Positions 189-12,040 of a stretch of DNA of 12,040 nt are shown piece after piece. Origin of the DNA: a virus (lineage: Duplodnaviria; Heunggongvirae; Uroviricota; Caudoviricetes); IMG/VR virus record IMGVR_UViG_2751185968_000006; one strand, given 5' to 3'. Position 1 is the stretch's first letter, and every line of letters begins with the position of its first letter. The translations under genes were made by a program, and so were the position numbers. The notes under the pieces were generated by a model. The model had not been told where the DNA came from. It ran no database searches and worked only from the letters and a program-made list of their open reading frames with translations.

Positions 189-243
189 GCAAGCACCTTA
201 AAATCACCATCATACACTAAATCAGTAAGTTGGCAGCATTACC
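1..243 (-). mobile_element. IS1-family insertion sequence, partial; continues beyond the left window edge, terminal inverted repeat ends at 243
   Basis: Reverse complement of 232-243 is GGTAATGCTGCC, followed by AACTTACTGATTTAGTGTATGATGGTG, matching the IS1 left terminal repeat as recalled. The insA reading frame follows on the minus strand. Confidence 0.85.
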
Positions 244-2605
244 AATTAACGGAGGGTATCAGTACATTGAAATGAATGGTACCGCAGAATACTCAGTATT
301 AAATGACGGTTATCAAATTGTTCAAATGGGTGGCGCGGCAAACCAGACTACCCTCAATAATGGTGTGCTACAGGTTTATGGCGCAGCGAATGATCCCACG
401 ATTAAAGGCGGGCGCTTAATCGTTGAAAAAGATGGGATTACCGTCCTTGCCGCTATCGAAAAGGGAGGATTACTGGAGGTTAAAGAGGGGGGATTAGCGA
501 TTGCGGTAGATCAGAAAGCAGGCGGTGCTATTAAAGCAAGCACGCGGGTCATGGAGGCATTCGGAATAAACCGTCTCGGTCAGTTCGAAATCAAGAATGG
601 TATTGCTAACAATATGCTGTTGGAAAACGGCGGAAGTTTGCGAGTTGAAGAAAATGACTTCGCTTATAATACTACTGTAGATAGTGGCGGCTTACTGGAG
701 GTTATGGATGGCGGGACTGCAACTGGCGTTGATAAAAAAGCAGGCGGAAAATTAATTGTCTCAACGAATGCGCTGGAAGTGAGTGGTACAAACAGTAAAG
801 GCCAATTTAGTATAAAAGATGGTGTGTCAAAAAATTATGAACTGGATGATGGTTCCGGGCTCATTGTTATGGAGGACACGCAGGCCATTGATACTATCCT
901 TGATGAGCATGCCACTATGCAATCGCTGGGAAAGGATACTGGTACGAAAGTGCAGGCAAATGCGGTATATGATCTCGGTCGATCAGACCAGAATGGAAGT
1001 ATCACGTATTCCTCTAAAGCCATCTCTGAAAATATGGTTATCAACAATGGCCGCGCTAATGTCTGGGCTGGCACAATGGTTAACGTGTCAGTCAGAGGGA
1101 ATGATGGCATTCTTGAGGTCATGAAGCCGCAAATAAATTATGCACCCGCTATGTTGGTGGGTAAGGTAGTGGTTTCTGAGGGCGCTTCTTTTAGAACGCA
1201 TGGTGCCGTGGATACCAGCAAAGCGGACGTTTCGCTCGAAAATAGCGTATGGGCCATCATTGCCGATATCACTACGACGAACCAAAACACCCTCCTCAAC
1301 TTAGCCAACCTTGCGATGTCTGACGCAAATGTGATTATGATGGATGAGCCAGTGACTCGTTCATCAGTGACGGCAAGTGCGGAAAATTTCATTACGTTGA
1401 CCACCAATACCCTGTCGGGAAACGGCAATTTTTATATGCGTACCGATATGGCTAATCATCAGAGCGATCAGCTCAACGTCACCGGTCAGGCAACAGGTGA
1501 TTTCAAAATATTCGTGACGGACACCGGTGCCAGCCCGGCAGCAGGAGATAGCCTTACACTGGTAACAACGGGCGGCGGTGATGCTGCATTTACGTTGGGC
1601 AATGCCGGAGGCGTTGTTGATATCGGTACGTATGAATATACCTTGCTGGATAATGGCAACCATAGCTGGAGTTTGGCAGAGAATCGCGCGCAAATTACCC
1701 CTTCAACCACTGATGTGCTGAATATGGCGGCCGCACAACCGCTGGTATTTGATGCAGAACTGGACACCGTGCGTGAGCGTCTTGGTAGCGTAAAAAGCGT
1801 TAGTTACGATACGGCGATGTGGAGTTCGGCAATTAACACCCGCAACAACGTGACCACTGATGCGGGAGCTGGTTTTGAGCAAACATTGACGGGCCTGACG
1901 CTCGGTATCGATAGCCGTTTCTCCCGTGAAGAAAGCAGTACAATTCGCGGCTTGTTCTTTGGTTACTCTCATTCTGATATTGGTTTTGATCGCGGCGGAA
2001 AAGGTAATATCGATAGCTATACCCTGGGGGCTTATGCCGGTTGGGAGCATCAGAACGGTGCCTATGTTGATGGGGTGGTGAAAGTTGACCGTTTTGCCAA
2101 CACCATCCATGGCAAGATGAGTAATGGGGCAACAGCGTTTGGCGATTACAATAGTAACGGCGCGGGTGCTCATGTTGAGAGCGGGTTCCGTTGGGTTGAC
2201 GGATTGTGGAGTGTTAGACCCTATCTGGCCTTTACCGGCTTTACCACAGATGGTCAGGACTACACGTTATCAAACGGCATGCGCGCTGATGTGGGAAATA
2301 CCCGGATATTACGCGCTGAAGCGGGAACGGCGGTAAGCTATCACATGGACCTGCAAAATGGTACGACGCTGGAACCCTGGCTGAAAGCCGCCGTACGTCA
2401 GGAATACGCCGATTCTAACCATGTGAAAGTTAATGACGATGGCAAATTTAATAATGATGTGGCTGGAACCCCTGGCGTTTATCAGGCTGGGATAAGGTCA
2501 TCGTTTACCCCGACGTTAAGCGGTCATTTGTCAGTCAGCTATGGCAATGGCGCAGGGGTAGAATCGCCGTGGAATACTCAGGCGGGAGTGGTCTGGACGT
2601 TCTGA
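230..2605 (+). CDS. AIDA-I/Ag43-type autotransporter adhesin, 5'-truncated by IS1 (probable pseudogene: no signal peptide, no credible start)
   Basis: 791-aa ORF with repetitive GG-x-L-x-V passenger-type repeats and a C-terminal beta-barrel-like domain ending in aromatic residues (VVWTF). The frame runs into the IS1 terminal repeat; the only start is a TTG at 230 inside IS1, with an in-frame stop at 218-220. Confidence 0.75.
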   Translation: MAALPINGGYQYIEMNGTAEYSVLNDGYQIVQMGGAANQTTLNNGVLQVYGAANDPTIKGGRLIVEKDGITVLAAIEKGGLLEVKEGGLAIAVDQKAGGAIKASTRVMEAFGINRLGQFEIKNGIANNMLLENGGSLRVEENDFAYNTTVDSGGLLEVMDGGTATGVDKKAGGKLIVSTNALEVSGTNSKGQFSIKDGVSKNYELDDGSGLIVMEDTQAIDTILDEHATMQSLGKDTGTKVQANAVYDLGRSDQNGSITYSSKAISENMVINNGRANVWAGTMVNVSVRGNDGILEVMKPQINYAPAMLVGKVVVSEGASFRTHGAVDTSKADVSLENSVWAIIADITTTNQNTLLNLANLAMSDANVIMMDEPVTRSSVTASAENFITLTTNTLSGNGNFYMRTDMANHQSDQLNVTGQATGDFKIFVTDTGASPAAGDSLTLVTTGGGDAAFTLGNAGGVVDIGTYEYTLLDNGNHSWSLAENRAQITPSTTDVLNMAAAQPLVFDAELDTVRERLGSVKSVSYDTAMWSSAINTRNNVTTDAGAGFEQTLTGLTLGIDSRFSREESSTIRGLFFGYSHSDIGFDRGGKGNIDSYTLGAYAGWEHQNGAYVDGVVKVDRFANTIHGKMSNGATAFGDYNSNGAGAHVESGFRWVDGLWSVRPYLAFTGFTTDGQDYTLSNGMRADVGNTRILRAEAGTAVSYHMDLQNGTTLEPWLKAAVRQEYADSNHVKVNDDGKFNNDVAGTPGVYQAGIRSSFTPTLSGHLSVSYGNGAGVESPWNTQAGVVWTF

Positions 2606-2665
2606 TAACAGAAAATAAACAGGCTGTGATGTGTCACGGTCTGTTTATCAAATTAATTGCAGATA

Positions 2666-2698
2666 TAAAAAAACCAACCGTAAAGGTTGGTTTTTTCT
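2666..2698. terminator. Rho-independent terminator hairpin downstream of the autotransporter, potentially bidirectional
   Basis: Stem AACCAACC (2672-2679) / GGTTGGTT (2685-2692), loop GTAAA, flanked by an A-run upstream and T6 (2691-2696) downstream. Confidence 0.55.
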
Positions 2699-3109
2699 TG
2701 GGATTCACGAGAGTAGTTTAATTGAGCGTGTAACTTCATGATTTAAAATAATGTATATGATTCAACTTTTAAACCGTATAACCAAACGTATAACTAAAAT
2801 GATTTGCTGAAAAAATGCACAATTCAGGGTCGGATTTTCCCGGATGTTTAATTTATAAAAACGAAGCTGGTGGATGATCTGCGTGGTGATTTCCACCATT
2901 CAGAGCAGGGGCGGTCATCATGCCCATGCCATAACAAAAACCCCATATTCGTGGTTTTTCTGTGTTGTGGCTATTCTGCCGTTGCCGTGCTGGTGGATAT
3001 TTCCGTTATGGGGATCACCATATCGGCATCATGCCCACCAGCCAGCGCAATTTTGCGCTTTGCTTTAAGTTCAGCAAGTTACCGCGCCGGATTACGCCAA
3101 TGGCTGTTT

Positions 3110-3287
3110 CCGAAAGAATCAACGGGTTAGGCCTTAATGGGCTGCGTGGTAATTATCAGCATCCAGAATATGACGGGTTATGTTTCCGACCTCCTCAATT
3201 TGAGGTTCCCGAAAATATCAACGGGTTAGGCTGGTTTCCCCGATGTTCGCCGCTGGCGAATTTCGAAAATATCAACCAGTTACCGCC
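3110..3287 (+). repeat. Three direct copies of a ~22-bp motif (consensus near CGAAAATATCAACGGGTTAGGC) in a non-coding stretch at the element boundary
   Basis: Copies at 3110-3133 (CCGAAAGAATCAACGGGTTAGGCC), 3208-3232 (CCCGAAAATATCAACGGGTTAGGCT) and 3262-3287 (TTCGAAAATATCAACCAGTTACCGCC). A palindrome CCTCAATTTGAGG lies at 3193-3205. Confidence 0.5.
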
Positions 3288-3561
3288 GCAACCGCTCCGG
3301 CTTCTTCCAGTGGTATGTAATTTTCTCCGTTTCCCGATACAGTGCCACGCGGCGATTGTAGGCCAGCATTTCAAGAACGCGGATCCGTATGTTGCGCATA
3401 TCCACATCATTAAGCTGGATACCATCACGGCGCATCACCTCAGCAACAACACGCGCATAATTTTCGGCTGTCACGCTGTCCGGCTGCGTGGCCTGTTCGT
3501 CAGTCTGCTGGCTGATTCCACCAGCACGGCGGATTAATCCCAGTATTTCGGCTTCTGTCAT
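3280..3561 (-). CDS. Hypothetical protein (93 aa), last gene of the satellite-like element
   Basis: ORF with ATG at 3561 preceded by an AGGTG Shine-Dalgarno 4 nt upstream. No recognisable family. Confidence 0.5.
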   Translation of the reverse strand: MTEAEILGLIRRAGGISQQTDEQATQPDSVTAENYARVVAEVMRRDGIQLNDVDMRNIRIRVLEMLAYNRRVALYRETEKITYHWKKPERLRR

Positions 3562-3595
3562 TGTGCACCTATCGTTCTGATTGTCTGGTGTCGTC

Positions 3596-3780
3596 GGGTC
3601 CTTCCTGGAATTATGGACCCGTTACGGGGCGGCGACCTCGCGCGTTTTCACTATTTATGAAAATTTTTCGGGATCCATGTCCGGTTTCTCTACAAGTTAA
3701 CCATATGAAAAATATAAAAACATGCTTTCCATGAACCGGACATGCGCAAAAAACAGACACTAAAACCGGACATCGAACCA
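3596..3780 (+). other. Lambda-type cos site, copy A (plus orientation): cosQ-like flank, cosN, and cosB-like region with three ACCGGACAT repeats
   Basis: GTTACG at 3621-3626 then GGGCGGCGACCT at 3627-3638 (the 12-nt lambda cohesive-end sequence), then CGCGCGTTTTCACTATTTATGAAAATTTT resembling the lambda left end as recalled. Repeats: CATGTCCGG 3676-3684 (inverted), ACCGGACAT 3735-3743 and 3765-3773. Confidence 0.6.
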
Positions 3781-3841
3781 GTTAACCGAAAGTGTGCACA
3801 AATCACATGCATTGCTGCGAGTGATTAACAAGTTATCGGCT

Positions 3842-4276
3842 TTACTGTTCTGTATCGGCTGATTGCTCCATGCTGGCACGGCGAACGCTTACGGCATGAC
3901 GCCACCCAGCCAGAAAGCCAGCCATTTTATTTCGTGCCTTGCTCACATCTTCCGGTGAATAGCCGTAAATCTGCAAACCTTCATCAAATCGATGTTCTGT
4001 TTCTTCACTGGAGTACTCGTCACGCTCAGATGAAAGCAGCCTGGCAAACATAATTTTTTCCAGCGCACTGGTTTCTACGTGATATCTGATGGCCTCAAGA
4101 CGGCTTTTACCTGAAGACCAAAGCAATGTATGCCCGATGTGATAACCGCCAGACTTTCCGCGATCCGCATTAAGATACGGCATCCCCTGTTTGGTCCATG
4201 CGCGAATAGTGGTTCTGTTAACCTTGAAATGTTCAGCTATTTCCTGCTGACTTACAAAACAAGCTTTATCAATCAT
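3842..4276 (-). CDS. Terminase small subunit-like protein (lambda Nu1-type N-terminal HTH), 144 aa; candidate packaging-redirecting (Rpp-like) protein
   Basis: N-terminus QQEIAEHFKVNRTTIRAWTKQGMPY resembles lambda Nu1 KKQLADIFGASIRTIQNWQEQGMPV (from memory). It is shorter than Nu1, sits about 90 bp downstream of cos copy B on the same strand, and no large terminase gene is present. Confidence 0.7.
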   Translation of the reverse strand: MIDKACFVSQQEIAEHFKVNRTTIRAWTKQGMPYLNADRGKSGGYHIGHTLLWSSGKSRLEAIRYHVETSALEKIMFARLLSSERDEYSSEETEHRFDEGLQIYGYSPEDVSKARNKMAGFLAGWRHAVSVRRASMEQSADTEQ

Positions 4277-4343
4277 AATGTTACCTTAACTGCATGGTTA
4301 AATATTAATCAAGTGGTGGTGGTGTCACCTTCACGGAAAAACG

Positions 4344-4407
4344 TCATAAATAGCGAAAACCCGCGAGGTCGCCGCCCCGTAACGGGCCATAATTCCAGGA
4401 AGGACCC
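4344..4407 (-). other. Lambda-type cos site, copy B (minus orientation), immediately upstream of the TerS-like gene; inverted relative to copy A
   Basis: Minus-strand reading is GGGTCCTTCCTGGAATTATGGCCCGTTACG-GGGCGGCGACCT-CGCGGGTTTTCGCTATTTATGA; cosN lies at 4366-4377. About 64 bp are near-identical to copy A (3596-3660) in inverted orientation. Confidence 0.65.
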
Positions 4408-4409
4408 GC

Positions 4410-4431
4410 AAAAAAGCCGGATTTCTCCGGC
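4410..4431 (-). terminator. Rho-independent terminator-like hairpin after the 137-aa gene; copy 1 of a thrice-repeated hairpin
   Basis: Plus strand AAAAAA-GCCGGA-TTTC-TCCGGC (stem 4416-4421 / 4426-4431). On the minus strand the hairpin is followed by T6. Confidence 0.45.
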
Positions 4432-4437
4432 CTTGTC

Positions 4438-4851
4438 TCAGATGGTTTTCAGTATGCGATCGATGTCGCCGTCATCGCCTGGGTTTCTGCCATCGTATGC
4501 CATGCCAGCTGATACGGTTTGTGGGCTGTGCATGTCCATAAAGTTTTCAAAGGCTGCGGTAAGCTCTGGTGCAACCTTCGGGCGTTCCTGCTCTATGGTC
4601 ATGTTCAGGATGTTTTTAGCCGTATCAACATCGATACAAGGCACGTTTGCCATTGCACGCAACAGCGGCTGATAGTCTTTATGCTCATGAAGCGCCATAA
4701 TCGCATCAGCGCGCGGCTTGTCCTGCTCTTCCAGTTTGTTGAGTTGATATACGGCCTCGTAGGTTGATAAACCTCTGTCAGCCATTGCCCGCGCTTCGGC
4801 TTTAAATTTACTCGCCAGCGGTAGCGCCATGATGCTTTCATTCGTTGCCAT
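4438..4851 (-). CDS. Hypothetical protein (137 aa) between decoration-like gene and cos; possible head or packaging accessory protein
   Basis: ORF with ATG at 4851 and a GGGGGA Shine-Dalgarno sequence. Position matches a capsid/packaging module; no family recognised. Confidence 0.5.
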   Translation of the reverse strand: MATNESIMALPLASKFKAEARAMADRGLSTYEAVYQLNKLEEQDKPRADAIMALHEHKDYQPLLRAMANVPCIDVDTAKNILNMTIEQERPKVAPELTAAFENFMDMHSPQTVSAGMAYDGRNPGDDGDIDRILKTI

Positions 4852-4863
4852 CGTTCCCCCTGC

Positions 4864-5167
4864 TTATCGGGCCAGCGGCTGAACGGATACGCCAGAACCC
4901 GCAAAGGCGGCGCATTTTTTCGCATCGGTGTCGACGCTCTCAGGCCAGTTAACGGCGGCAATATTGAATATCCCCGTCTTGTAACACTGTGCTGATTTCT
5001 GCTTTGACGTGTCCACGAGGTACGAAGTCAGATAAACAGCCTTGCCAGATTCCTGACCATCCCACGGCTTAAACTCGCCATTGTCCACCAGCATCAGCGG
5101 CAAAATGTACCAGTGTCGTTGATACCTGCTGACTGCCTGCAAATAACTCAATATATGGAGTGTCCAT
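4864..5167 (-). CDS. Head decoration protein, lambda gpD-like; possibly frameshifted
   Basis: The C-terminal frame (supplied ORF 4864-5151) reads PLMLVD...WDGQ...YKTGIF...WPESVD...KKCAAFAGSG, paralleling lambda gpD PLMLD...WDG...YKSGTF...WPEA...KKRTAFAG (from memory). The only ATG with a good RBS (GGGGGA) is at 5167 in another frame, which stops at 5069. Confidence 0.55.
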
Positions 5168-5178
5168 ATAATCCCCCG

Positions 5179-6234
5179 TTAACCAATTTTGACGGTAACA
5201 AATTTGCGAATATCTGCCGGAACCGGCTGCGGTGCGCTGTGTGTCTGCACGTACTCAATCGCCGGATCGCCGTCCTCAATCCAGTTTTTCGGGTAGTACA
5301 TGTTTTGCGTTGCGCCCGTTCTTACCGCTTCCTGATCCATAATCGCACCATAGGCCACCAGCCCTTTATTGTTGGTGTTGCCCAGGACCAGCAAATCAGG
5401 CTCAAGGAAATATTTTTCGGTGCCGTCGCTGTCAGTGTATTTGCCGGAATAGACAATAAGAGCAATATCGCCCAGATAGCCTTTAAAGCTCACCACTTCG
5501 CCCAGGTTTTTACAGGCCATTTCTGCGGCGGATTCTGAACCACGGGAAAGATCGTACAGTTCACGGAATTTTTTAAAGCTGCGTAACGTGCGCCATACCT
5601 CAGCGCCCATAATCATGACGTTGGCGGGGCAACCTGCCTGATCTGCGTATAGTTCGATGTCATAGATTGGATCGTAAATATCTTTATCATGCTCGGACCA
5701 TTTTTTGCCGTCGGACTGCTCTATGATGTTTTTTTCCGGTATCTTCCAGTCGATTTCATAGCGTTCTATGCCTTCGCCCTCAATGATGTTTTTTCCGGTC
5801 GTTACCGCATTCACCGCCAGCCATTCCACGCGTGCCTTAATGGCGTTTATCTGGCGGCGCATGTTGCCAGTAATCAGGCGCATACGGCGATAGGTAGGGT
5901 CGTTAAGCTGTGCCGGATCTTCTCCAGCCATGCGCATGATGGTTTTCGTTGGATCGATTTCGTGCTTTGGCTTCATGTAGCCAGGTTTGATTGTGCTGGT
6001 TTCGTACCCTTTATCGCGCTGAACCTGGCTACCCACCATAGGCGAACAAAACGCCGACATGGTGACTTCTTCAATGTCCAGGGTATCCAGCATGATGTTT
6101 TGCGTGCTGAATGTCGCCACGTTCGGGAAAAACAGCGTGGTAAACAGAGGGCTGAATTTAAAATCCGCAATATCCCCGCGATTCAGGTACATAAAAAGCT
6201 GGTTAGTGTTAAGTGCCGTTGCTTTGCCTGCCAT
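5179..6234 (-). CDS. Major capsid protein, lambda gpE family (351 aa)
   Basis: Collinear similarity to lambda gpE as recalled: FKFSPLFTTLFF vs FKFDPLFLRLFF, PGYMKPKHEIDP vs PGYVKPKHEVNP, DPTYRRMRLITGNMR vs DPAYRRRRIIMQNMR, YKGYLGDIALIVYSG vs YKGMYGDVAIVVYSG, YPKNWIEDGDPA vs YPKNWVTTGDPA. Confidence 0.9.
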   Translation of the reverse strand: MAGKATALNTNQLFMYLNRGDIADFKFSPLFTTLFFPNVATFSTQNIMLDTLDIEEVTMSAFCSPMVGSQVQRDKGYETSTIKPGYMKPKHEIDPTKTIMRMAGEDPAQLNDPTYRRMRLITGNMRRQINAIKARVEWLAVNAVTTGKNIIEGEGIERYEIDWKIPEKNIIEQSDGKKWSEHDKDIYDPIYDIELYADQAGCPANVMIMGAEVWRTLRSFKKFRELYDLSRGSESAAEMACKNLGEVVSFKGYLGDIALIVYSGKYTDSDGTEKYFLEPDLLVLGNTNNKGLVAYGAIMDQEAVRTGATQNMYYPKNWIEDGDPAIEYVQTHSAPQPVPADIRKFVTVKIG

Positions 6235-6440
6235 TATTCACCCCCATAATTTTTATGCATCCCAAGCGCCGCAAGTAAATAAGAGCGTACAAGTGAACCT
6301 ATCGACGGCTCCGGCGTCATCAGCGGATCCAGTCCAGCCGCCACGCCAGCCTCATAGTTTTTTTTGTGGCGCTGCTTGAGCACCTCCACGATTTCGGGGC
6401 TTATGTACACCGAAACACCGCCTTTTTTCTCTTCAGCCAT
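6234..6440 (-). CDS. Hypothetical small protein (about 68 aa), translationally coupled to the major capsid gene
   Basis: Likely start at ATG 6440 (MAEEKKGG...) with AAGAGGAA upstream; the supplied ORF extends to 6473 without an RBS. Its stop overlaps the capsid start as TAATG at 6232-6236. Confidence 0.45.
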   Translation of the reverse strand: MAEEKKGGVSVYISPEIVEVLKQRHKKNYEAGVAAGLDPLMTPEPSIGSLVRSYLLAALGMHKNYGGE

Positions 6441-6493
6441 AGTAAGAAATTCCTCTTCGACTAAAAAAATCATAACTGGATGTTTATCCAGTC

Positions 6494-6524
6494 CTGATTA
6501 TAATCAGAATTGCATTTTATGCAA
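6494..6524 (-). promoter_or_regulatory. Putative sigma70-type promoter for the capsid module, with both hexamers inside palindromes
   Basis: Minus strand: -35 TTGCAT (plus 6519-6524), 16-bp spacer, -10 TATAAT (plus 6497-6502). The -10 lies in the palindrome CTGATTATAATCAG (6494-6507) and the -35 in TTGCATTTTATGCAA (6510-6524). Confidence 0.4.
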
Positions 6525-6604
6525 TAATATTGAGTTATGTTGCAAATTATGAAATGATTATCCCGATCACGAACGCCAGTGCATCCAAAAACCTCATATG
6601 CAAA

Positions 6605-6642
6605 AGCCCGATAAGAACCCTCTGACCTTATCGGGCTTTTTT
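6605..6642 (+). terminator. Terminator-like hairpin with T6 tail on the plus strand
   Basis: Stem AGCCCGATAAG (6605-6615) / CTTATCGGGCT (6627-6637), followed by TTTTTT (6637-6642). No obvious plus-strand gene lies upstream. Confidence 0.4.
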
Positions 6643-6648
6643 GGGCGC

Positions 6649-6670
6649 AAAAAAGCCGGATTGCTCCGGC
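6649..6670 (-). terminator. Rho-independent terminator-like hairpin after the 74-aa gene; copy 2 of the repeated hairpin
   Basis: Plus strand AAAAAA-GCCGGA-TTGC-TCCGGC (stem 6655-6660 / 6665-6670); T6 follows on the minus strand. Confidence 0.45.
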
Positions 6671-6690
6671 TATGTGTGCTGTGTGCTGGA

Positions 6691-6915
6691 TCAGTCTCTG
6701 ATCTCTTTCAGAAATTCTATCAATGCATCTATCTGTTCAGGATTTACCGCCAGCATTTCACCGGATAGAGCACATCTCACAAAACCATGCTGATCCTTTT
6801 CAATCAGTGCGCCCGTCTCCAGGAATGCGCGGTAATCATTGATGCTCATCGTCTCCATGTTGTCAGCATGGTATTTATCACGCTGTTTTAATATCTCATC
6901 AAATTTCATCGGCAT
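6691..6915 (-). CDS. Hypothetical protein (74 aa), stand-alone cassette
   Basis: ATG at 6915 with an AGAGGAAA Shine-Dalgarno sequence. Bracketed by terminator hairpins at 7012-7033 (upstream) and 6649-6670 (downstream). Confidence 0.5.
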   Translation of the reverse strand: MPMKFDEILKQRDKYHADNMETMSINDYRAFLETGALIEKDQHGFVRCALSGEMLAVNPEQIDALIEFLKEIRD

Positions 6916-7011
6916 TGTTTTTTTCCTCTGTTGTGTCTGTTTGTTTCAGATAGTAACTATGCCTGACCGTGACGAAAACCCGGTAATGCGCCATACCGTT
7001 TCAACTGGTGC

Positions 7012-7033
7012 AAAAAAGCCGGATTTCTCCGGC
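7012..7033 (-). terminator. Rho-independent terminator-like hairpin after the PerC-like gene; copy 3 of the repeated hairpin
   Basis: Plus strand AAAAAA-GCCGGA-TTTC-TCCGGC (stem 7018-7023 / 7028-7033); T6 follows on the minus strand. Confidence 0.45.
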
Positions 7034-7040
7034 TGTTTGA

Positions 7041-7313
7041 TTAGCTGTCCTGGTAATTGCGCCATATTTCATCACCAGCACCATCTATACCCATTTCGGC
7101 ATAAGTGCGATCGACTGCCTTTTTCAGGTCTCCGAAATTATCCGGCGGCTCCGGTGCCCTCTGTGCCTTCCTTGAACATTCCAGCCGTCGCATCGTGATG
7201 TGATGCCGTTCCTTGTCTGTCTCCACCAGCTGCATGACTTCACCCCATCGCGCCGCCGCCCTCCGGTAAAAGCCTTTCGCCTCCAGTTCCTCCGCTATGC
7301 GGTCATGTACCAT
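7041..7313 (-). CDS. PerC-family-like transcriptional regulator (about 90 aa)
   Basis: Likely start at ATG 7313 with a strong GAGGGGGTG RBS. The protein MVHDRIAEELEAKGFYRRAAARWGEVMQLVETDKERHHITMRRLEC fits the PerC/Pch pattern (LE..G.WRRAA.RW...TD.ER) as recalled. Confidence 0.45.
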   Translation of the reverse strand: MVHDRIAEELEAKGFYRRAAARWGEVMQLVETDKERHHITMRRLECSRKAQRAPEPPDNFGDLKKAVDRTYAEMGIDGAGDEIWRNYQDS

Positions 7314-7323
7314 CGTCACCCCC

Positions 7324-7734
7324 TCAGAACGAAATATCATCACCGTAAGGGTCATCGCCTCCCGCTGGTGGCTGATTACCCTGTGTGCCTGTGGTTTTGC
7401 GTCTGTTCCCGCCTGGACGTGCCGCGCGGGCACTGATTACGCTGTCTGCGATAACCTGCCAGCCCTGCCGCGTTTCTCCGTTCTGTCCGGTCCACTGGCT
7501 TACCTGCATCGTGCCGGATACGCTGGCAACATCGCCTTTTTGATGTTTAGCCAGGAAGTCGGCCTGTTTGCCAAATGCGATGACCGATAACCATAACGTC
7601 GCCTGTCCGTCCTGTGCCTGGCTGCATGGCAAAGATACCGCCATACGCGCCAGCGTCATCGGTGTGCCCTTGCTGGTCTGTTTTACCTGCGGGTCGTCCA
7701 CCAGCCGCCCGTAAGCGGCTATCTGTGCCGTCAT
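7324..7734 (-). CDS. Single-stranded DNA-binding protein (SSB)-like, 136 aa
   Basis: N-terminus IAAYGRLVDDPQVK resembles the SSB OB-fold start (VILVGNLGQDPEVR), and the C-terminal acidic tip PYGDDISF resembles DDDIPF. The start overlaps the upstream stop as ATGA. Confidence 0.65.
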   Translation of the reverse strand: MTAQIAAYGRLVDDPQVKQTSKGTPMTLARMAVSLPCSQAQDGQATLWLSVIAFGKQADFLAKHQKGDVASVSGTMQVSQWTGQNGETRQGWQVIADSVISARAARPGGNRRKTTGTQGNQPPAGGDDPYGDDISF

Positions 7735-7982
7735 AATTCCACCTCTCCGGTTTTAACGTTGATGGTTGTTACCTGTTCCGCTTCGGCAATCTCCCGTTCT
7801 GTCAGCGTGGCAAAGTTTGCCGCCGCCGTGGTCATGAATGCGCTTATCAGGTCGGGATGTTCCTTCGCGTATCCTTCCCGCGTGTGGCGGTCTATCGTTC
7901 TGATTGCCACCTTTAAGGTGTGCTCAGTCATGTCTAACGCTTTATATTTTGGCTCTGTTCTGTCTCTGCGTTTTTGGGTCAT
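7731..7982 (-). CDS. Hypothetical protein (83 aa from ATG 7982; the supplied ORF extends to a GTG at 8012)
   Basis: ORF translationally coupled to the SSB-like gene. The upstream extension overlaps the iteron array, so the ATG at 7982 is the more likely start. Confidence 0.45.
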   Translation of the reverse strand: MTQKRRDRTEPKYKALDMTEHTLKVAIRTIDRHTREGYAKEHPDLISAFMTTAAANFATLTEREIAEAEQVTTINVKTGEVEL

Positions 7983-7993
7983 TTCTCGCAACC

Positions 7994-8181
7994 TCTCACT
8001 TTTTCGCCTCACTTTTTCAAGCGTCTCACTTCGTCGCAGTTGGGATTTTCGGTTTTTCTATGTGTGTGTTTTATAAGTATTTTTTTACCCCTCACTTTTG
8101 AGGATGTATACAGGTCGAAAAGTGAGGGAGAGCGGGCTAATTTTGGCCCTCTTTCTATCCCCCTCGCTTTTGCTCCTCACT
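7994..8181. repeat. Iteron array and AT-rich region: putative satellite origin of replication, immediately downstream of the replication gene
   Basis: Seven copies of CCTCACTTTT-like motifs: CTCACT at 7995-8000, 8008-8013, 8025-8030, 8091-8096 and 8176-8181, an inverted copy at 8118-8127, and a variant CTCGCT at 8163-8168. An AT-rich stretch lies at 8041-8087; copies 4 and 5 form 12-bp inverted arms 16 bp apart. Confidence 0.5.
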
Positions 8182-8182
8182 T

Positions 8183-8530
8183 TTATAGCGGCGCTACATC
8201 ATCCCCATCGATACTAATAACCCCATCTTTTTCCAGCTTGTACAGCCAGCGCCGGAAGTTTTTCATTTCATACCCCAGCTTTTTCATGTCATCACGTAAC
8301 AGCGGGATCGTGCACTTGTCGCCGTTCTGTGTGCGTGAACGGATGCACCCCCATAGCGCGGTATGGTTTTCCGTCTTGTTCCCTGCCTCCTCGATGCGCT
8401 CCAGTTCAACAGGAGGGCGCGGATCATCCACCACCACCAGCGACGTGATTAATTCACCGTCAGCGTCGGTAAAAAGCTCCACCACGCGTAAGTCATATGC
8501 GGCTTCTTTGAGTTCCTCCGCGTCCTTCAT
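8183..8530 (-). CDS. Replication protein, C-terminal fragment (second piece of a frameshifted primase/helicase-type gene)
   Basis: This frame stays open upstream of the annotated ATG to about 8638 and there encodes DESARGSSAFRASLDAEY, the expected continuation after the HHSGKD motif of RecA-like replication ATPases. Confidence 0.6.
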   Translation of the reverse strand: MKDAEELKEAAYDLRVVELFTDADGELITSLVVVDDPRPPVELERIEEAGNKTENHTALWGCIRSRTQNGDKCTIPLLRDDMKKLGYEMKNFRRWLYKLEKDGVISIDGDDVAPL

Positions 8531-9582
8531 TTTGGTGCATGAGATAACCAGCGCTTTGCTTCCTGCGTCCTCCCTGCGTATCCGGTATTCAGCATCCAGC
8601 GAAGCACGAAATGCACTGGAACCGCGCGCGCTTTCGTCTCATCCTTGCCGGAATGGTGAACCACCAGCACCGTGGCCCCTGTGCGTCGTTTCAGTTCGTC
8701 ACAACCACGGATAAACGCCCCCATATCACGGGAATCATTTTCATCATTCCCACCAAAGCAACGCGCCAGCGTATCCAGAATAATCATGCGTACAGGTTTA
8801 CCCGTTTCCCGCTCCACCTGACGGGCAGCGATAACCATTTCATCAACATCAAGCGGGGCAGCCGGAAAGATGGGGCGGTTTACCAGATACAGATTTTTCA
8901 CCTGCTCATCGTGCACAACCTCCCAGGCTTTTACACGACGCGGAACGCCGATACCGCCTTCACCAACCACATAGAGAACCGCACCATGTGCAACCCTGCG
9001 GCCTCCCCACTGGCGACCAGTGGCAACATGGCACGCCCACGATCCGGCAAGGAATGATTTATAGGACCCGCTAGCCCCGTATATGCTGCATAGCGATACC
9101 GCCGGAATAATCCCCTTAACCACGTAATCCAGTTGCGTGTCGTATCCGGTAGATCCAACGCTCATCGGTAGCGTGGTTTTTCGCTGGTGGTTTTTTTCTT
9201 CCACCGGCTCTTTCCCGCGCACCCGTTCCAGGTATTCGCGCCAGTTCTCCCGCATATGGCTGTGCATCCCTTCGGGGTAATAATTCGCATCAGTTACACC
9301 CGCCGCCGCCAGCTTGTGCGCAATGGCATTAATATTTGATGGCCTGATGTGGCCTGCCTTGTACAGCCGGACACAATAGCGCCCCTCGTCGATGATTCTC
9401 AGGTCTGCCAGTTCATCCAGTTGATCATCAGCCAGCACAACGGGAGGCACATTATCGCCAGCCAGTCGCCCGTCCTGTTCCTGCCACTGTTTTGCATGTG
9501 CCCAGGCATCACTACCCGCAAAAATAATGACTTCGGTCATCTTGTCGTAAGGCTGTTTTTTTAAGTTCGGTGCGCTTTTCAT
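8527..9582 (-). CDS. Primase/helicase-type replication protein (RepA-like P-loop ATPase), N-terminal fragment ending prematurely after a frameshift
   Basis: Walker A GASGSYKS, Walker B MIILDTLARCF, then VLVVHHSGKDE typical of RepA-like helicases. The frame then reads TKARAVPVHF... to a stop at 8527, just downstream of a (CG)4 tract at 8623-8631. Confidence 0.75.
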   Translation of the reverse strand: MKSAPNLKKQPYDKMTEVIIFAGSDAWAHAKQWQEQDGRLAGDNVPPVVLADDQLDELADLRIIDEGRYCVRLYKAGHIRPSNINAIAHKLAAAGVTDANYYPEGMHSHMRENWREYLERVRGKEPVEEKNHQRKTTLPMSVGSTGYDTQLDYVVKGIIPAVSLCSIYGASGSYKSFLAGSWACHVATGRQWGGRRVAHGAVLYVVGEGGIGVPRRVKAWEVVHDEQVKNLYLVNRPIFPAAPLDVDEMVIAARQVERETGKPVRMIILDTLARCFGGNDENDSRDMGAFIRGCDELKRRTGATVLVVHHSGKDETKARAVPVHFVLRWMLNTGYAGRTQEAKRWLSHAPK

Positions 9583-9878
9583 TTCTTGCCCCTGAATCCG
9601 TTAATCATGGTTTTCAGCTTCTGGATGTTTGCCCGTGCCCTGGCGTTGCTGGTGGGCACGTTATGCGGCGCGGTCTGTACCAGAGAAAAATCACGCCGGA
9701 ACTGATAAACAGGCATCACGCAATCATATTCGTAACCTTCACGGCGGTAGGTTACACGCCGTTCTTCCACGCCCTTAATCATTACCGTGCCGCCGTACTG
9801 GTCGCGGTAAATATCACCGCGCGTAAATTTAGGGTGAGTGTTGCCACTGGCAGTTAAGCCAGAATATTTAAGTTTCAT
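9579..9878 (-). CDS. Hypothetical protein (99 aa), coupled to the replication gene
   Basis: ORF in the tiled minus-strand operon; its stop overlaps the replication gene start (ATGA). Overlapping plus-strand ORFs have junk-like composition. Confidence 0.45.
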   Translation of the reverse strand: MKLKYSGLTASGNTHPKFTRGDIYRDQYGGTVMIKGVEERRVTYRREGYEYDCVMPVYQFRRDFSLVQTAPHNVPTSNARARANIQKLKTMINGFRGKK

Positions 9879-9883
9879 TATTT

Positions 9884-10117
9884 TTATTCTCCGGTGTGCT
9901 GTTCTTTATATCTGTCGTGCAATAGATCTATTTCTTGCAGTTCCATTATTACAGGCTCAAGAAGCGTTATTAATGCCGTGGCAATTCTTGATTTTTGTTT
10001 GTCGCGTTCATTGTCGCCAAGTGTTTCAAGCCATATGCGCAATATTTCCAGCATGTTTTCACTGTGAGAAAGTGCAAGAAATGCGCGGTCTATTGTTTCG
10101 TGGTAAATATCACGCAT
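9884..10117 (-). CDS. Hypothetical protein (77 aa)
   Basis: ORF in the tiled minus-strand operon with protein-like, charged composition; no family recognised. Confidence 0.45.
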   Translation of the reverse strand: MRDIYHETIDRAFLALSHSENMLEILRIWLETLGDNERDKQKSRIATALITLLEPVIMELQEIDLLHDRYKEQHTGE

Positions 10118-10343
10118 GGCTTACATCCTCAGGAAATTTTCTTCTGTAACGCGCCTCTGCCACATATTCCGCATAATCGGCGGCGATATTCAGTACATCA
10201 AGCCCCGTTGATTTATATTCTCTCGTGGAAAGTAAGAAAAAAGCCGCTCTAATAAGTTCTGGCATTGACGAAAGCGCATCAGCCGCATCATCAGGAACGC
10301 CGGGAAATTCCTGTTTCAGGGAATTAAAACGATCATCACGCAT
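10110..10343 (-). CDS. Hypothetical protein (77 aa from ATG 10343; the supplied ORF extends to 10391)
   Basis: ATG at 10343 is preceded by a G7 Shine-Dalgarno run and overlaps the upstream stop codon (ATGCGTGA). Confidence 0.45.
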   Translation of the reverse strand: MRDDRFNSLKQEFPGVPDDAADALSSMPELIRAAFFLLSTREYKSTGLDVLNIAADYAEYVAEARYRRKFPEDVSHA

Positions 10344-10557
10344 AACCCCCCCCATTTTCACAATCAGCAACAAGAATATTTTTAGCGTCATTCAGCGACC
10401 GCGTTGCGATGTATCGGATACATTCCAGGGCGAACTGTGTCCGGTCTTTCTGTTCTTCTCCCTGCGCAAGCTCTGCAGTGCATTCAATATCAATAAGCGC
10501 GTGCATCAGCGTAGTGAGTGCGGCGGCTGCTGCGTTCGGTGTGGTTTTATTGTGCAT
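10336..10557 (-). CDS. Hypothetical protein (73 aa from ATG 10557; the supplied ORF extends to 10599)
   Basis: ATG at 10557 is preceded by AGGGGGAAA. No family recognised. Confidence 0.45.
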   Translation of the reverse strand: MHNKTTPNAAAAALTTLMHALIDIECTAELAQGEEQKDRTQFALECIRYIATRSLNDAKNILVADCENGGGYA

Positions 10558-10747
10558 AGGTTTCCCCCTGACGAATACGGGCGGCGAATACAGCAACACA
10601 ACCGGACGGGCAACGGCTACGCGCTTCGCGTTCCGTCCAGGCGGTTACGTGGATGATTTGAGATTCTCCGGCACTCAGGGCCAGAAAACGCCACACAAAG
10701 GCCGTTTGTGTGTGTACAAGGTGTGGTATATGATTTACGGCAACCAT
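10547..10747 (-). CDS. Hypothetical small protein (66 aa), likely first gene of the leftward operon
   Basis: ATG at 10747 is preceded by TAGGAG with a 5-nt spacer. A structured leader hairpin (10779-10809) lies upstream. Confidence 0.35.
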   Translation of the reverse strand: MVAVNHIPHLVHTQTAFVWRFLALSAGESQIIHVTAWTEREARSRCPSGCVAVFAARIRQGETYAQ

Positions 10748-10836
10748 AACGGCTCCTAGTTTACGTTGTTGGTTAGAAGCCCTGCGAGTGGTAATGACAC
10801 TTGCGGGGCTTTGCTTTTTTAAGTGCTCTTGTGTTA

Positions 10837-10883
10837 AGGTGGCCACCTAACAATGGAAAGGCTAATTCAATAGGTGACCACTT
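10837..10883. promoter_or_regulatory. Divergent control region with two related operator-like sites and a consensus -35 hexamer
   Basis: Perfect 12-bp palindrome AGGTGGCCACCT (10837-10848) and a related half-palindromic site AGGTGACCACTT (10872-10883), about 35 bp apart. TTGACA reads on the minus strand at 10888-10883. Confidence 0.35.
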
Positions 10884-10941
10884 GTCAATAATCAAACGCG
10901 ATAAAAGCCCTAAAGGGGACGGGCAATCCCCACAATTCAGA

Positions 10942-11073
10942 ATGCGAATTTCTCCAGAGCTAAAAGAGCAATTCGACAAAGAAGCACAGAGCGACGGCAT
11001 AAGCCTAGCCAACTGGCTTAAAGAGTTGGGGCGCACTGAACTAAAGCGGCGCGGCATAGAACCCAAAGGATAA
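10942..11073 (+). CDS. Small ribbon-helix-helix (Arc/CopG-like) DNA-binding protein, 43 aa; candidate repressor
   Basis: MRISPELKEQFDKEAQSDGISLANWLKELGRTELKRRG fits the RHH pattern of a short N-terminal beta-strand followed by two helices. It is divergent from the main operon and next to the operator-like palindromes; its RBS is weak. Confidence 0.45.
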   Translation: MRISPELKEQFDKEAQSDGISLANWLKELGRTELKRRGIEPKG

Positions 11074-11130
11074 AAACTATCAGCGCCGTGGTGTGAGGTA
11101 TTACGGCGCATTGCTATGCAGGACAACACA

Positions 11131-11304
11131 ATGACCGATAAAGAATTGACCAAAACATTATCACCGGCACGGAAAAGACGGCGCAGAAAGATAGAGCATG
11201 AATCAGAAAGATTCGCACCATGTGCTTTTGCCCTTGAGCAATTCCTTAAAGAGTATAGGGAAAAGCGCTCATTGCAGGTATGGCAACGAACTGAACCAGA
11301 CTGA
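11131..11304 (+). CDS. Hypothetical small basic protein (57 aa), second gene of the rightward pair
   Basis: ATG at 11131 is preceded by AGGA with a 7-nt spacer. It has an arginine/lysine-rich N-terminus (ARKRRRRK) and is followed by a plus-strand terminator. Confidence 0.35.
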   Translation: MTDKELTKTLSPARKRRRRKIEHESERFAPCAFALEQFLKEYREKRSLQVWQRTEPD

Positions 11305-11398
11305 TTGCATTGCCCACCAGCCTGATAGCGGCTATCATCCCCGTGCTTATGTTTGGGATCATATACACATAAGGCGCAGCGGGTTAATTGTTCAGAAA

Positions 11399-11426
11399 GG
11401 CGGCTCCATATCGGGGCCGCTTTTTT
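11399..11426 (+). terminator. Rho-independent terminator of the rightward RHH operon, convergent with alpA
   Basis: Stem GCGGCTCC (11400-11407) / GGGGCCGC (11413-11420) with one G-U pair, loop ATATC, followed by T6 (11421-11426). Confidence 0.5.
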
Positions 11427-11452
11427 CGTGTTTGTCATATCTGTGATACCCG

Positions 11453-11659
11453 TTAAGCAGCCGTTCCGCGTGCTTCCTGTTCGCGTTCTTTCTGCCAGGC
11501 CAACACATCATCCTCATACCATCCGCGACGGCGTAAACCAACGCGAAAACCCTGCGGAAATTCTCCGGCGTTGATCATGCTTTGCAGCGTGCTGTCTGCC
11601 TTGATGTGGATAATTTTTTTTACTTCCTGGCGAAAGATAATTTTTCTGATTGCTTCCAT
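11453..11659 (-). CDS. alpA: AlpA-family (phage excisionase/regulator-like) DNA-binding protein, 68 aa
   Basis: KADSTLQSMINAGEFPQGFRVGLRRRGWYEDDVLAWQ matches the AlpA/Xis-type pattern (...FP.P.K.G.R...W...EV..W) as recalled. Confidence 0.7.
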   Translation of the reverse strand: MEAIRKIIFRQEVKKIIHIKADSTLQSMINAGEFPQGFRVGLRRRGWYEDDVLAWQKEREQEARGTAA

Positions 11660-11764
11660 CGTGATTTACCTTGTGAATCCGGTGTATTCCGGTGACAAAT
11701 ACGGTAAATCATCGGATATGGGTAAAAACAGTTCCCACCGTTTTTAAACGGTATACACCGTTTT

Positions 11765-12040
11765 GGTAATGACTCCAACTTACTGATAGTGTTTTATGTT
11801 CAGATAATGCCCGATGACCTTGTCATGCAGCTCCACCGATTTTGAGAACGACAGTGACTTCCGTCCCAGCCTTGCCAGATGTTGTCTCAGATTCAGATTA
11901 TGTCGCTCAATGCGCTGAGTGTAACGCTTGCTGATAACGTGCAGCTTTCCCTTCAGGCGTGATTCATACAGCGGCCAGCCATCCGTCATCCATACCACGA
12001 CCTCAAAGGCCGACAGCAGGCTCAGAAGACGCTCCAGTGT
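11765..12040 (-). mobile_element. IS1-family insertion sequence, partial; right terminal repeat at 11765, continues beyond the right window edge
   Basis: GGTAATGACTCCAACTTACTGATAGTGTTTTATGTTCAGATAATGCCCGATGAC from 11765 matches the IS1 right terminal repeat as recalled. The insB frame follows on the minus strand. Confidence 0.9.
11780..12040 (-). CDS. insB: IS1 InsB transposase, C-terminal part (gene runs off the window edge)
   Basis: Minus-strand translation [86 protein letters not shown] matches the InsB C-terminus as recalled; it is in frame to the window edge. Confidence 0.85.

Follow-up and report, generated by a model that had tools for sequence, protein, structure and literature searches.

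The closest described relative of the locus reported here is the cos1/cos2/rppA module of EcCICFT073, a phage-inducible chromosomal island (PICI) that encodes the redirecting-phage-packaging protein RppA (c1503) together with two packaging sites (Fillol-Salom 2018 ISME J PMC6092414; Fillol-Salom 2019 Mol Cell PMC6739421). In that island, RppA and the TerS of a helper phage form a heterodimer that reads the cosB of cos1 but does not recognize that of the phage, with the result that phage packaging is blocked and island packaging promoted (PMC6092414, PMC6739421). Either site, when cloned, renders a plasmid transducible by lambda and phi80, and deletion of cos1 strongly reduces transfer of the island; cos1 is essential because its cosB is what the heterodimer recognizes (PMC6092414, PMC6739421). 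Deletion of cos2 slightly increases phi80-mediated transfer and significantly increases lambda-mediated transfer, and loss of both sites abolishes it (PMC6739421). The cosB regions of EcCICFT073 are stated to differ from that of lambda (PMC6092414). Helper-dependent induction, cos1-dependent transfer and Rpp interference are experimentally established for EcCICFT073 only, and both papers leave open the reason for two cos sites (PMC6092414, PMC6739421). Here we analyze a stretch of 12,040 nucleotides (the window) from the caudoviricete record IMGVR_UViG_2751185968_000006, in which two lambda-type cos sites in inverted orientation bracket a small gene. The core of this arrangement is already known: copy B of the repeat is the published cos1, copy A is the published cos2, and the open reading frame (ORF) between them is RppA. 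We add that cos2 has a close phage counterpart, that the inverted layout is general among related islands, and that the interior of the module occurs in both orientations. These additions are modest; judged by the literature searched, they are new.

In the window, a repeat search returns two pairs of inverted arms, one of 56 nt with 88% identity (3618-3673/4331-4386) and one of 25 nt with 96% identity (3595-3619/4384-4408). They constitute a single arm pair of ~79 nt, split by a 1-nt indel that corresponds to an extra A at 3618 in copy A. The 12-nt cosN sequence GGGCGGCGACCT is present exactly at 3627-3638 on the plus strand and at 4366-4377 on the minus strand. With up to one mismatch allowed, these two matches compare with 0.03 expected in the window, and none of 200 shuffled sequences produced two; we therefore reject a chance match as the origin of the repeat, and the exact cosN likewise rejects the second copy being a pseudo-site. 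Both cosN copies are preceded by GTTACG and followed by CGCG(C/G)GTTTTC(A/G)CTATTTATGA, and both arms contain the cosQ block CGGGTCCTT. The annotated 'cos site' of a DE3/lambda record (L004, 1032-1043) is gggcggcgacct, and its surroundings agree as well, with ggttacg and the cosQ block acgggtcctttcc before it and cgcgggttttcgctatttatgaaaattttcc after it; both window copies align to all of this. Judged against this annotated site, both copies thus possess a lambda-type cosN with an upstream cosQ. The R3/R2/R1 boxes of lambda (CGTTTCC-type) are absent from both by alignment; their place is taken by CCGGACAT boxes in cos2 and by a CACCACCACCAC run in cos1.

The two sites occupy 3595-3775 on the plus strand (copy A, cos2) and 4331-4408 on the minus strand (copy B, cos1), with their cosB sides facing inward. 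In cos2, an outer, cosQ-side arm at 3595-3626 (CGGGTCCTTCCTGGAATTATGGACCCGTTACG, 'type Y' in our survey), which aligns to the left flank of the DE3/lambda cosQ-cosN region, leads through cosN into a phage-type cosB at 3639-3775 with three boxes, at 3677-3687 on the plus strand and at 3736-3746 and 3765-3775 on the minus strand. In cos1, all on the minus strand, the outer arm at 4378-4408 (also 'type Y') and the cosN at 4366-4377 are followed by an island-specific cosB region at 4277-4365, which matches the published cos1, carries the CACCACCACCAC run at 4313-4324 and contains candidate rppA promoter hexamers. The cosN of copy B ends 89 nt upstream of the ATG at 4276, and that of copy A ends 203 nt from the stop codon at 3842, pointing toward the gene. 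The sequence between the two cosN copies (3639-4365, 727 bp) comprises both cosB regions and rppA, and is the part found in either orientation across genomes. A preliminary description of the window had correctly recognized two inverted lambda-type cos sites around a gene, with the longer cosB-like region in copy A, and had given the lambda cos sequence accurately; its coordinates (3596-3660 and 4344-4407) are otherwise right and slightly short on the inner side.

Judged by its sequence, the feature is the packaging module of an EcCICFT073-family PICI, with rppA between cos1 and cos2. The cos1 published in Figure S1A of Fillol-Salom, running from its cosN via ...ATGACGTTTTTCCGTGAAGGTGACACCACCACCACTTGATTAATATTTAACC... 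into ATGATTGATAAAGCTTGTTTTGTA, corresponds to the minus strand of copy B into the ORF at 4276, and the published cos2 (...ATGAAAATTTTTCGGGATCCATGTCCGGTTTCTCT...AACCGGACATGCGC...AACCGGACATCGAAC...; same figure) corresponds to copy A. As in the published module, both cos sites combine a lambda-like cosQ and cosN with a non-lambda cosB, and they flank rpp. The premise of the preliminary description that satellites normally carry one cos had overlooked this published arrangement (PMC6092414, PMC6739421). EcCICFT073 shares with the window the same cos1 and cos2, the 144-aa RppA, lambda-like cosQ/cosN and divergent cosB regions. The window copy differs in adjoining a yejO fragment between IS1 ends, and in the outer arm of cos1, which is 'type Y' here and 'type X' in CFT073-like islands, suggesting conversion between the arms. 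The window as a whole is a mosaic, with at most 83% of it covered by any complete E. coli genome.

The ORF at 3842-4276 on the minus strand (144 aa) matches the published RppA sequence apart from optical character recognition noise, and an oligonucleotide designed on CFT073 c1503 matches the window at 3910-3958. It also matches the structures of RppC in PDB (6hlk/6hn7, E=5e-31), and yields only weak helix-turn-helix matches in Pfam. Aligned with Nu1 of lambda, Nu1 of the phage PhiR12 and the full-length TerS of an O157 island, RppA shares only their N-terminal DNA-binding part. The C-terminal region common to those three Nu1-type proteins, which serves TerL interaction and oligomerization, is missing from the ORF. 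The gene thus has the composition of an Rpp—a TerS-like N-terminal DNA-binding domain lacking the TerL-binding C-terminus—and the possibility that it is a true TerS, as its earlier label 'TerS-like gene' implied, is rejected.

The cosB of cos2 was reported as matching no phage (PMC6092414, PMC6739421). Against deposited phages, however, copy A matches five PhiR12-type Escherichia phages well beyond cosN. From cosN through the third box (3627-3774), cos2 differs from PhiR12_1 (PV340549) by 5 mismatches in 148 nt, that is, ~97% identity. The matching stretch of the phage follows its lysis genes and lies directly upstream of Nu1 and gpA, which would be the expected place of that phage's own cos region. 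The first CCGGACAT box (3677-3687) is at approximately the same distance from cosN as R3 in lambda, and the other two boxes are oppositely oriented. The cosB+Nu1 module of PhiR12 type is widespread: 1154 of 5426 complete E. coli genomes match at least 80% of a probe spanning both elements. The cosB repeats of phi4 (CATGTCGGGCC), which we take to be of the phage-21 type, differ in sequence from the cos2 boxes. In the earlier analysis, lambda, phi80 and phi4 of CFT073 were the sole phages set against cos2 (2018 supplement, PMC6092414), and the phage counterpart of cos2 was missed because of this limited choice. For cos1, by contrast, phage database matches extend only ~40 nt rightward from cosN; the cosB of this site appears to be specific to the island, a requirement of the Rpp model. 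A search for PhiR12 itself retrieved only unrelated papers.

To place the module among related islands, we assembled 87 loci (designated L001 and so forth), of which 80 were fetched through the conserved 137-aa neighbor gene and the rest from complete genomes; the survey is thus anchored on a single gene, and the collections are rich in E. coli. An inverted pair of cosN sequences, plus then minus, is present in 59 of the 87 loci, and many of the others are cut by contig ends. The pair encloses cassettes of three families. Rpp-type cassettes have an interior of 727 nt (with RppA) or 747 nt (with a 146-aa relative, probably RppB), TerS-type cassettes one of ~855 nt, and a third type is a 512-nt remnant that has lost rpp and kept both cosB regions. 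Islands of O157:H7 belong to the TerS type: the same two outer arms, again inverted, surround an interior of another kind, with a gene for a full-length, Nu1-like TerS. Within every family the two cosB regions differ from each other. The terS-distal cos of the TerS type has all three R-like boxes, in lambda-like positions, in common with a prophage cos of strain 55989 that immediately precedes the TerS and TerL genes of its prophage; the TerS proteins of the island and of the prophage are only 31% identical. For the distal cosB of the O157 type, the phage collection contains no near-identical phage (best 72-76%), and a prophage counterpart of ~80% was found through genome search only. A phage-type cos and an island-type cos, inverted and with cosB inward, recur around cassettes with Rpp, with full TerS and with no rpp at all.

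Single-site relatives of both kinds are also present. Five loci (L014, L028, L043, L051 and L077) have the island-type cos and terS and lack the distal cos, and four (L078, L079, L080 and L086) have a single cos with a PhiR12-like cosB (84-86%) and a variant cosN, and encode neither rpp nor terS. The variant cosN of the latter group (GTTACG GGGCGGGAGCGGCGCAGAA...) is positioned about 60-75 nt after the 137-aa gene, and suggests another cohesive-end type among helpers. Single-base cosN variants confined to one arm occur in L017/L020/L022, L023, L061 and L067/L074. In L082 the same cosN variant, GGGCGTCGACCT, is found in both arms, indicating a concerted change of the two sites. The distal cos of the 747-nt cassette (L009 NZ_CP125889.1, L027, L040, L044, L045, L049, L060 and L063) does not have a PhiR12-type cosB; its cosB is G-rich (GAGCTTTTTTAGAGGGAGGTTGTT) and resembles the terS-proximal cosB of TerS-type islands, from which it follows that cosB types are shuffled among cassettes.

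The interior of the cassette is found in both orientations. We searched complete genomes for the predicted junction of an inverted interior (left flank, cosN, cosB1 and the 5′ end of rpp). The flipped RppA junction is present as one continuous match in 15 complete genomes, and the window-like order in 53. In the islands of HM670 (L001) and WP4-S17-ESBL-08 (L005), the flanks are identical at 200 of 200 positions on each side, whereas the interiors are identical (727/727) only when one of them is reverse complemented; the accessions of the 93-aa, Rpp, 137-aa, decoration and capsid proteins are likewise the same in both islands. Of the flipped RppA genomes, the two that we inspected (L005 and L006) have identical annotated islands, and all 15 have identical match statistics, so these genomes probably share one event or lineage. 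The other families display the same polymorphism. The TerS cassette is flipped in five complete genomes, with islands at two other chromosomal sites, and no flip is seen in ~40 O157:H7 assemblies among the matches listed. For the 512-nt cassette, a 4:6 split of orientations in IMG/VR drafts could have been an assembler artifact, but it held when re-tested in complete genomes (9 versus 3). Strain GF4 (NZ_CP172217.1) possesses two related islands, at ~1,063,235 and 5,149,472, whose 512-nt rpp-less cassettes are oppositely oriented. Only the cases from complete genomes are firm, as the orientation between inverted repeats can be arbitrary in short-read drafts, and consensus assemblies hide minority orientations. 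Altogether we count at least four independent flips. Such events are rare, and nothing in the data points to a programmed switch. The literature searched contains no description of an inversion between two cos sites. The cos1/cos2 pair of PICIs is discussed there in the two Fillol-Salom papers only, whose main texts do not contain the word 'inverted' and report neither flipped variants nor a phage counterpart of the cos2 cosB.

Outer arms are of two types, and each remains with its flank when the sequence enclosed by the arms switches sides; this places the exchange within a window of 25-28 nt centered on cosN. This is also the longest stretch of perfect identity between the arms. Elsewhere in the arms the markers are mosaic, in L046, L052 and L058 as well as in the window, with its extra A at 3618. 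Together with the shared variant of L082, these mosaics make gene conversion or homologous recombination the simplest mechanism, and flipping or exchange of the interior by one of these routes between the arms is most likely.

We favor the reading that the locus is a dual-route packaging module, in which cos1 and cos2 would serve as separate entries to helper terminases, and consider it probable, if by no means assured. In the published part of this scheme, RppA with the helper TerS reads cos1, the helper TerL cuts cosN, the island is packaged and the phage blocked. The cos1 site would then be the island-specific, Rpp-dependent route for helpers whose TerS binds RppA, such as lambda and phi80. 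The cos2 site is a full copy of a PhiR12-type cos, with cosQ, cosN and cosB boxes, and would accordingly be bound directly by the Nu1 of that phage class and operate independently of Rpp. We base this reading on the ~97% match between cos2 and PhiR12_1 upstream of Nu1 and the presence of the module in 1154 of 5426 genomes, as well as on the single-route relatives of both kinds, the phage-like distal cos of the TerS type and the recurrence of the inverted pair (59 of the 87 loci surveyed). For lambda and other non-cognate helpers, cos2 would act as a weak competing site 0.7 kb inside the DNA packaged from cos1, which fits the published rise in transfer upon cos2 deletion. The inverted orientation may be what allows the two sites to coexist. 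Lambda packaging initiates from cosN through cosB, and its termination requires a cosQ-cosN met in the same orientation. A packaging run from one site of the island would consequently end at the next copy of that same site, at least one island unit downstream; it would not stop early at the other site, and the 0.7-kb cassette would escape the deletion or duplication expected of sites in direct repeat. A side effect of the repeat would be the flipping or exchange of the interior, giving both orientations and several cassette types in nature.

Several points weigh against the dual-route reading. The homology between cos2 and PhiR12 stops inside the last box, and the overlapping third box of the phage is degenerate in the island. 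Some surveyed islands do without the distal cos. The helpers tested on EcCICFT073 were only lambda, phi80 and phi4, none of them PhiR12-type (PMC6092414, PMC6739421), and with lambda cos2 is a cost, since its deletion increases transfer (PMC6739421). The rationale offered for the inverted orientation reasons from general lambda packaging rules and would hold as far as they apply to the island. Compatibility with two helper terminases is nevertheless the best supported of the four explanations put forward in the preliminary description, given the complete PhiR12-type cosB of cos2 and the published Rpp dependence of cos1.

The increase in lambda-mediated transfer without cos2, the end of phage homology inside the last box and the relatives without a distal cos would also agree with cos2 being a tolerated leftover of recombination with a PhiR12-type phage, lacking present function while all packaging proceeds through cos1. 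We regard this as unlikely. The cosN of cos2 is exact and its cosQ intact, the cloned site is functional, and removing both sites impairs transfer more than removing cos1 alone. Moreover, 59 of 87 loci retain the pair, across three cassette families and even after the loss of rpp; the TerS-type cassette likewise has a phage-like distal site, and islands with only the phage-type cos exist. Recombination with a helper, proposed earlier as a scar, is thus plausible as the origin of cos2 but gives no account of why the site was kept. The near-exact likeness of cos2 to the cos of a common prophage could alternatively point to a decoy that sequesters helper terminase for interference. This is highly improbable: the published interference maps to RppA alone (c1503 data), and terminase engaged on a functional cos of a replicating island would package that island, which amounts to piracy.

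Two further explanations concern the inversion itself. The occurrence of both orientations with otherwise identical sequence, in complete genomes and in all three cassette families, and the narrow exchange window of ~25 nt around cosN could be taken for a programmed switch that toggles packaging direction or rppA expression in the manner of phase variation. The segment, however, encodes only rppA in its interior, and the genes flanking it match no recombinase family in Pfam or NCBIfam; none of the ~40 listed O157:H7 assemblies is flipped, and the flipped RppA genomes look like a single lineage. With the candidate rppA promoter hexamers inside the cassette and a terminator hairpin just outside, a flip need not change expression. 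We consider such a switch very unlikely, and of the invertible packaging cassette envisaged in the preliminary description what stands is that both orientations exist in nature, with no recombinase seen in or beside the segment and no sign of frequent switching within clones. The geometry of the sites, with cosB sides inward and both interior ends being 'left' ends, would also allow the helper terminase to flip or exchange the cassette: both cosN copies would be cut, and the interior, bearing the same 12-nt overhangs at both ends, would re-anneal either way. The informative arm markers do place the exchange at 25-28 nt centered on cosN, and a length of ~25-28 nt is near the lower limit for RecA-dependent recombination. 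Yet no other block of perfect identity between the arms is as long as these 25 nt, and in L046, L052, L058 and the window (extra A at 3618) the arm markers switch outside cosN, which fits ordinary recombination or conversion. The arm markers do not separate cutting and religation from homologous recombination and lean toward the latter; flipping by terminase has no direct support, is not needed to explain the data and seems improbable to us.

By itself, the core observation repeats published work and changes nothing. If cos2 is indeed an Rpp-independent route, two hijacking strategies, site mimicry and TerS redirection, would be combined in one 0.8-kb module, and the wider helper range would imply a wider spread of the virulence genes carried by islands. 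At its broadest, and here we are doubtful, the locus could be a cos-bounded specificity cassette that helper terminase flips or swaps, in either orientation or for that of another island, with cos2 giving Rpp-independent access to the PhiR12-type terminases of about one-fifth of E. coli genomes. The flip polymorphism provides a new and simple chromosomal marker for recombination, or for the action of terminase, at cos, and a caution for annotating islands or engineering them as delivery vehicles. The added observations make the question of why there are two cos sites directly testable.

The cassette is flanked by two conserved island genes on the minus strand, a 93-aa gene on the cos2 side (3280-3561) and a 137-aa gene on the cos1 side (4438-4851), the anchor of the 80-locus survey. 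The 93-aa gene stays in place when the cassette flips, and its product WP_000133413.1 is found beside both orientations (L001 and L005). Some RefSeq records label the 137-aa product 'phage head-tail connector protein'; neither of the two products, nor PhiR12 Nu1, has a match in Pfam or NCBIfam. The candidate rppA promoter is a set of promoter-like hexamers at 4328-4272 on the minus strand, a weak signal of 3 found against 1.4 expected. A hairpin with a U-run (GGCCGGAGAAAUCCGGCUUUUUU on the minus strand) follows the 137-aa gene at 4409-4437, just outside the cassette. It resembles a terminator, was missed by our promoter/terminator scan and confirmed by folding (-18.9 kcal/mol, z = -2.5). The same hairpin, AAAAAAGCCGGATTTCTCCGGC, occurs three times in the window (4405-4437, 6644-6676 and 7007-7039), terminator-like on the minus strand, and punctuates the late genes of the island.

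The remaining content of the window fits the island family, as it encodes a lambda gpE-like capsid protein, SSB and a RepA-type AAA_25 helicase. Related annotated islands carry the full PICI set (integrase, AlpA-type regulator, primase/replicase and att site), and the closely related ones sit between phoQ and roxA or adjoin yejO. An island integrase is not visible in the window, where homology to other islands stops at the IS1 end, 11764. The gene for the gpE-like major capsid protein (4864-6234, minus strand; Phage_cap_E, 3e-51) is directly upstream of cos1, and annotated relatives of the island additionally encode a gpD-like head decoration protein there. EcCICFT073 is said to be devoid of capsid-morphogenesis genes (PMC6092414). 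The island capsid and decoration proteins may serve, for example, in size redirection, a role that seems unaddressed in the searched literature. Both ends of the window are IS1-like, with an inverted repeat at 221-245/11763-11787 (I4) and an IS1 transposase fragment at 11780-11998 on the minus strand. Homology to other genomes spans exactly 244-11764, so the yejO fragment and the island lie between two IS1 copies. The fragment itself (230-2605, plus strand) is the C-terminal part of an AIDA/pertactin-type autotransporter, called yejO in relatives, with its 5′ side truncated by the IS1 end. Three copies of the 17-nt motif TTTTxCxCCTCACTTTT at 7973-8184, spaced by 83 and 85 nt between the SSB and RepA-type helicase genes, may be iterons of a replication origin. 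Three direct repeats of CGAAAATATCAACGGGTTA (3106-3132, 3205-3231 and 3264-3282) are located near the left end of the island and overlap the 3′ end of the 93-aa gene.

Among known systems, the cos of lambda agrees with the window sites in all 12 nt of cosN, in GTTACG on its left and ~35 nt on its right, and in the cosQ block CGGGTCCTT; lambda, however, has one site with Nu1 adjoining and R boxes of CGTTTCC..., whereas the window has two sites, with Rpp beside cos1 and CCGGACAT boxes in cos2. The PhiR12-type cos (PV340549 and relatives) shares ~97% with cos2 from cosN through the third box, but in the phage Nu1 and gpA follow the site, and in the island cos2 faces the 3′ end of rppA. Invertible segments of the Hin/Gin/Fim type resemble the cassette in being short, enclosed by inverted repeats and found in both orientations; in the window no invertase is seen, rapid switching leaves no sign, and the repeats are packaging sites. 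The cos-type staphylococcal PICIs SaPIbov5 and SaPIbov4 belong to another host, use another cos sequence and have no Rpp. Like the island in the window, they carry the cos of their helper for packaging, and SaPIbov4 is cited as having two putative cos sites (PMC6739421).

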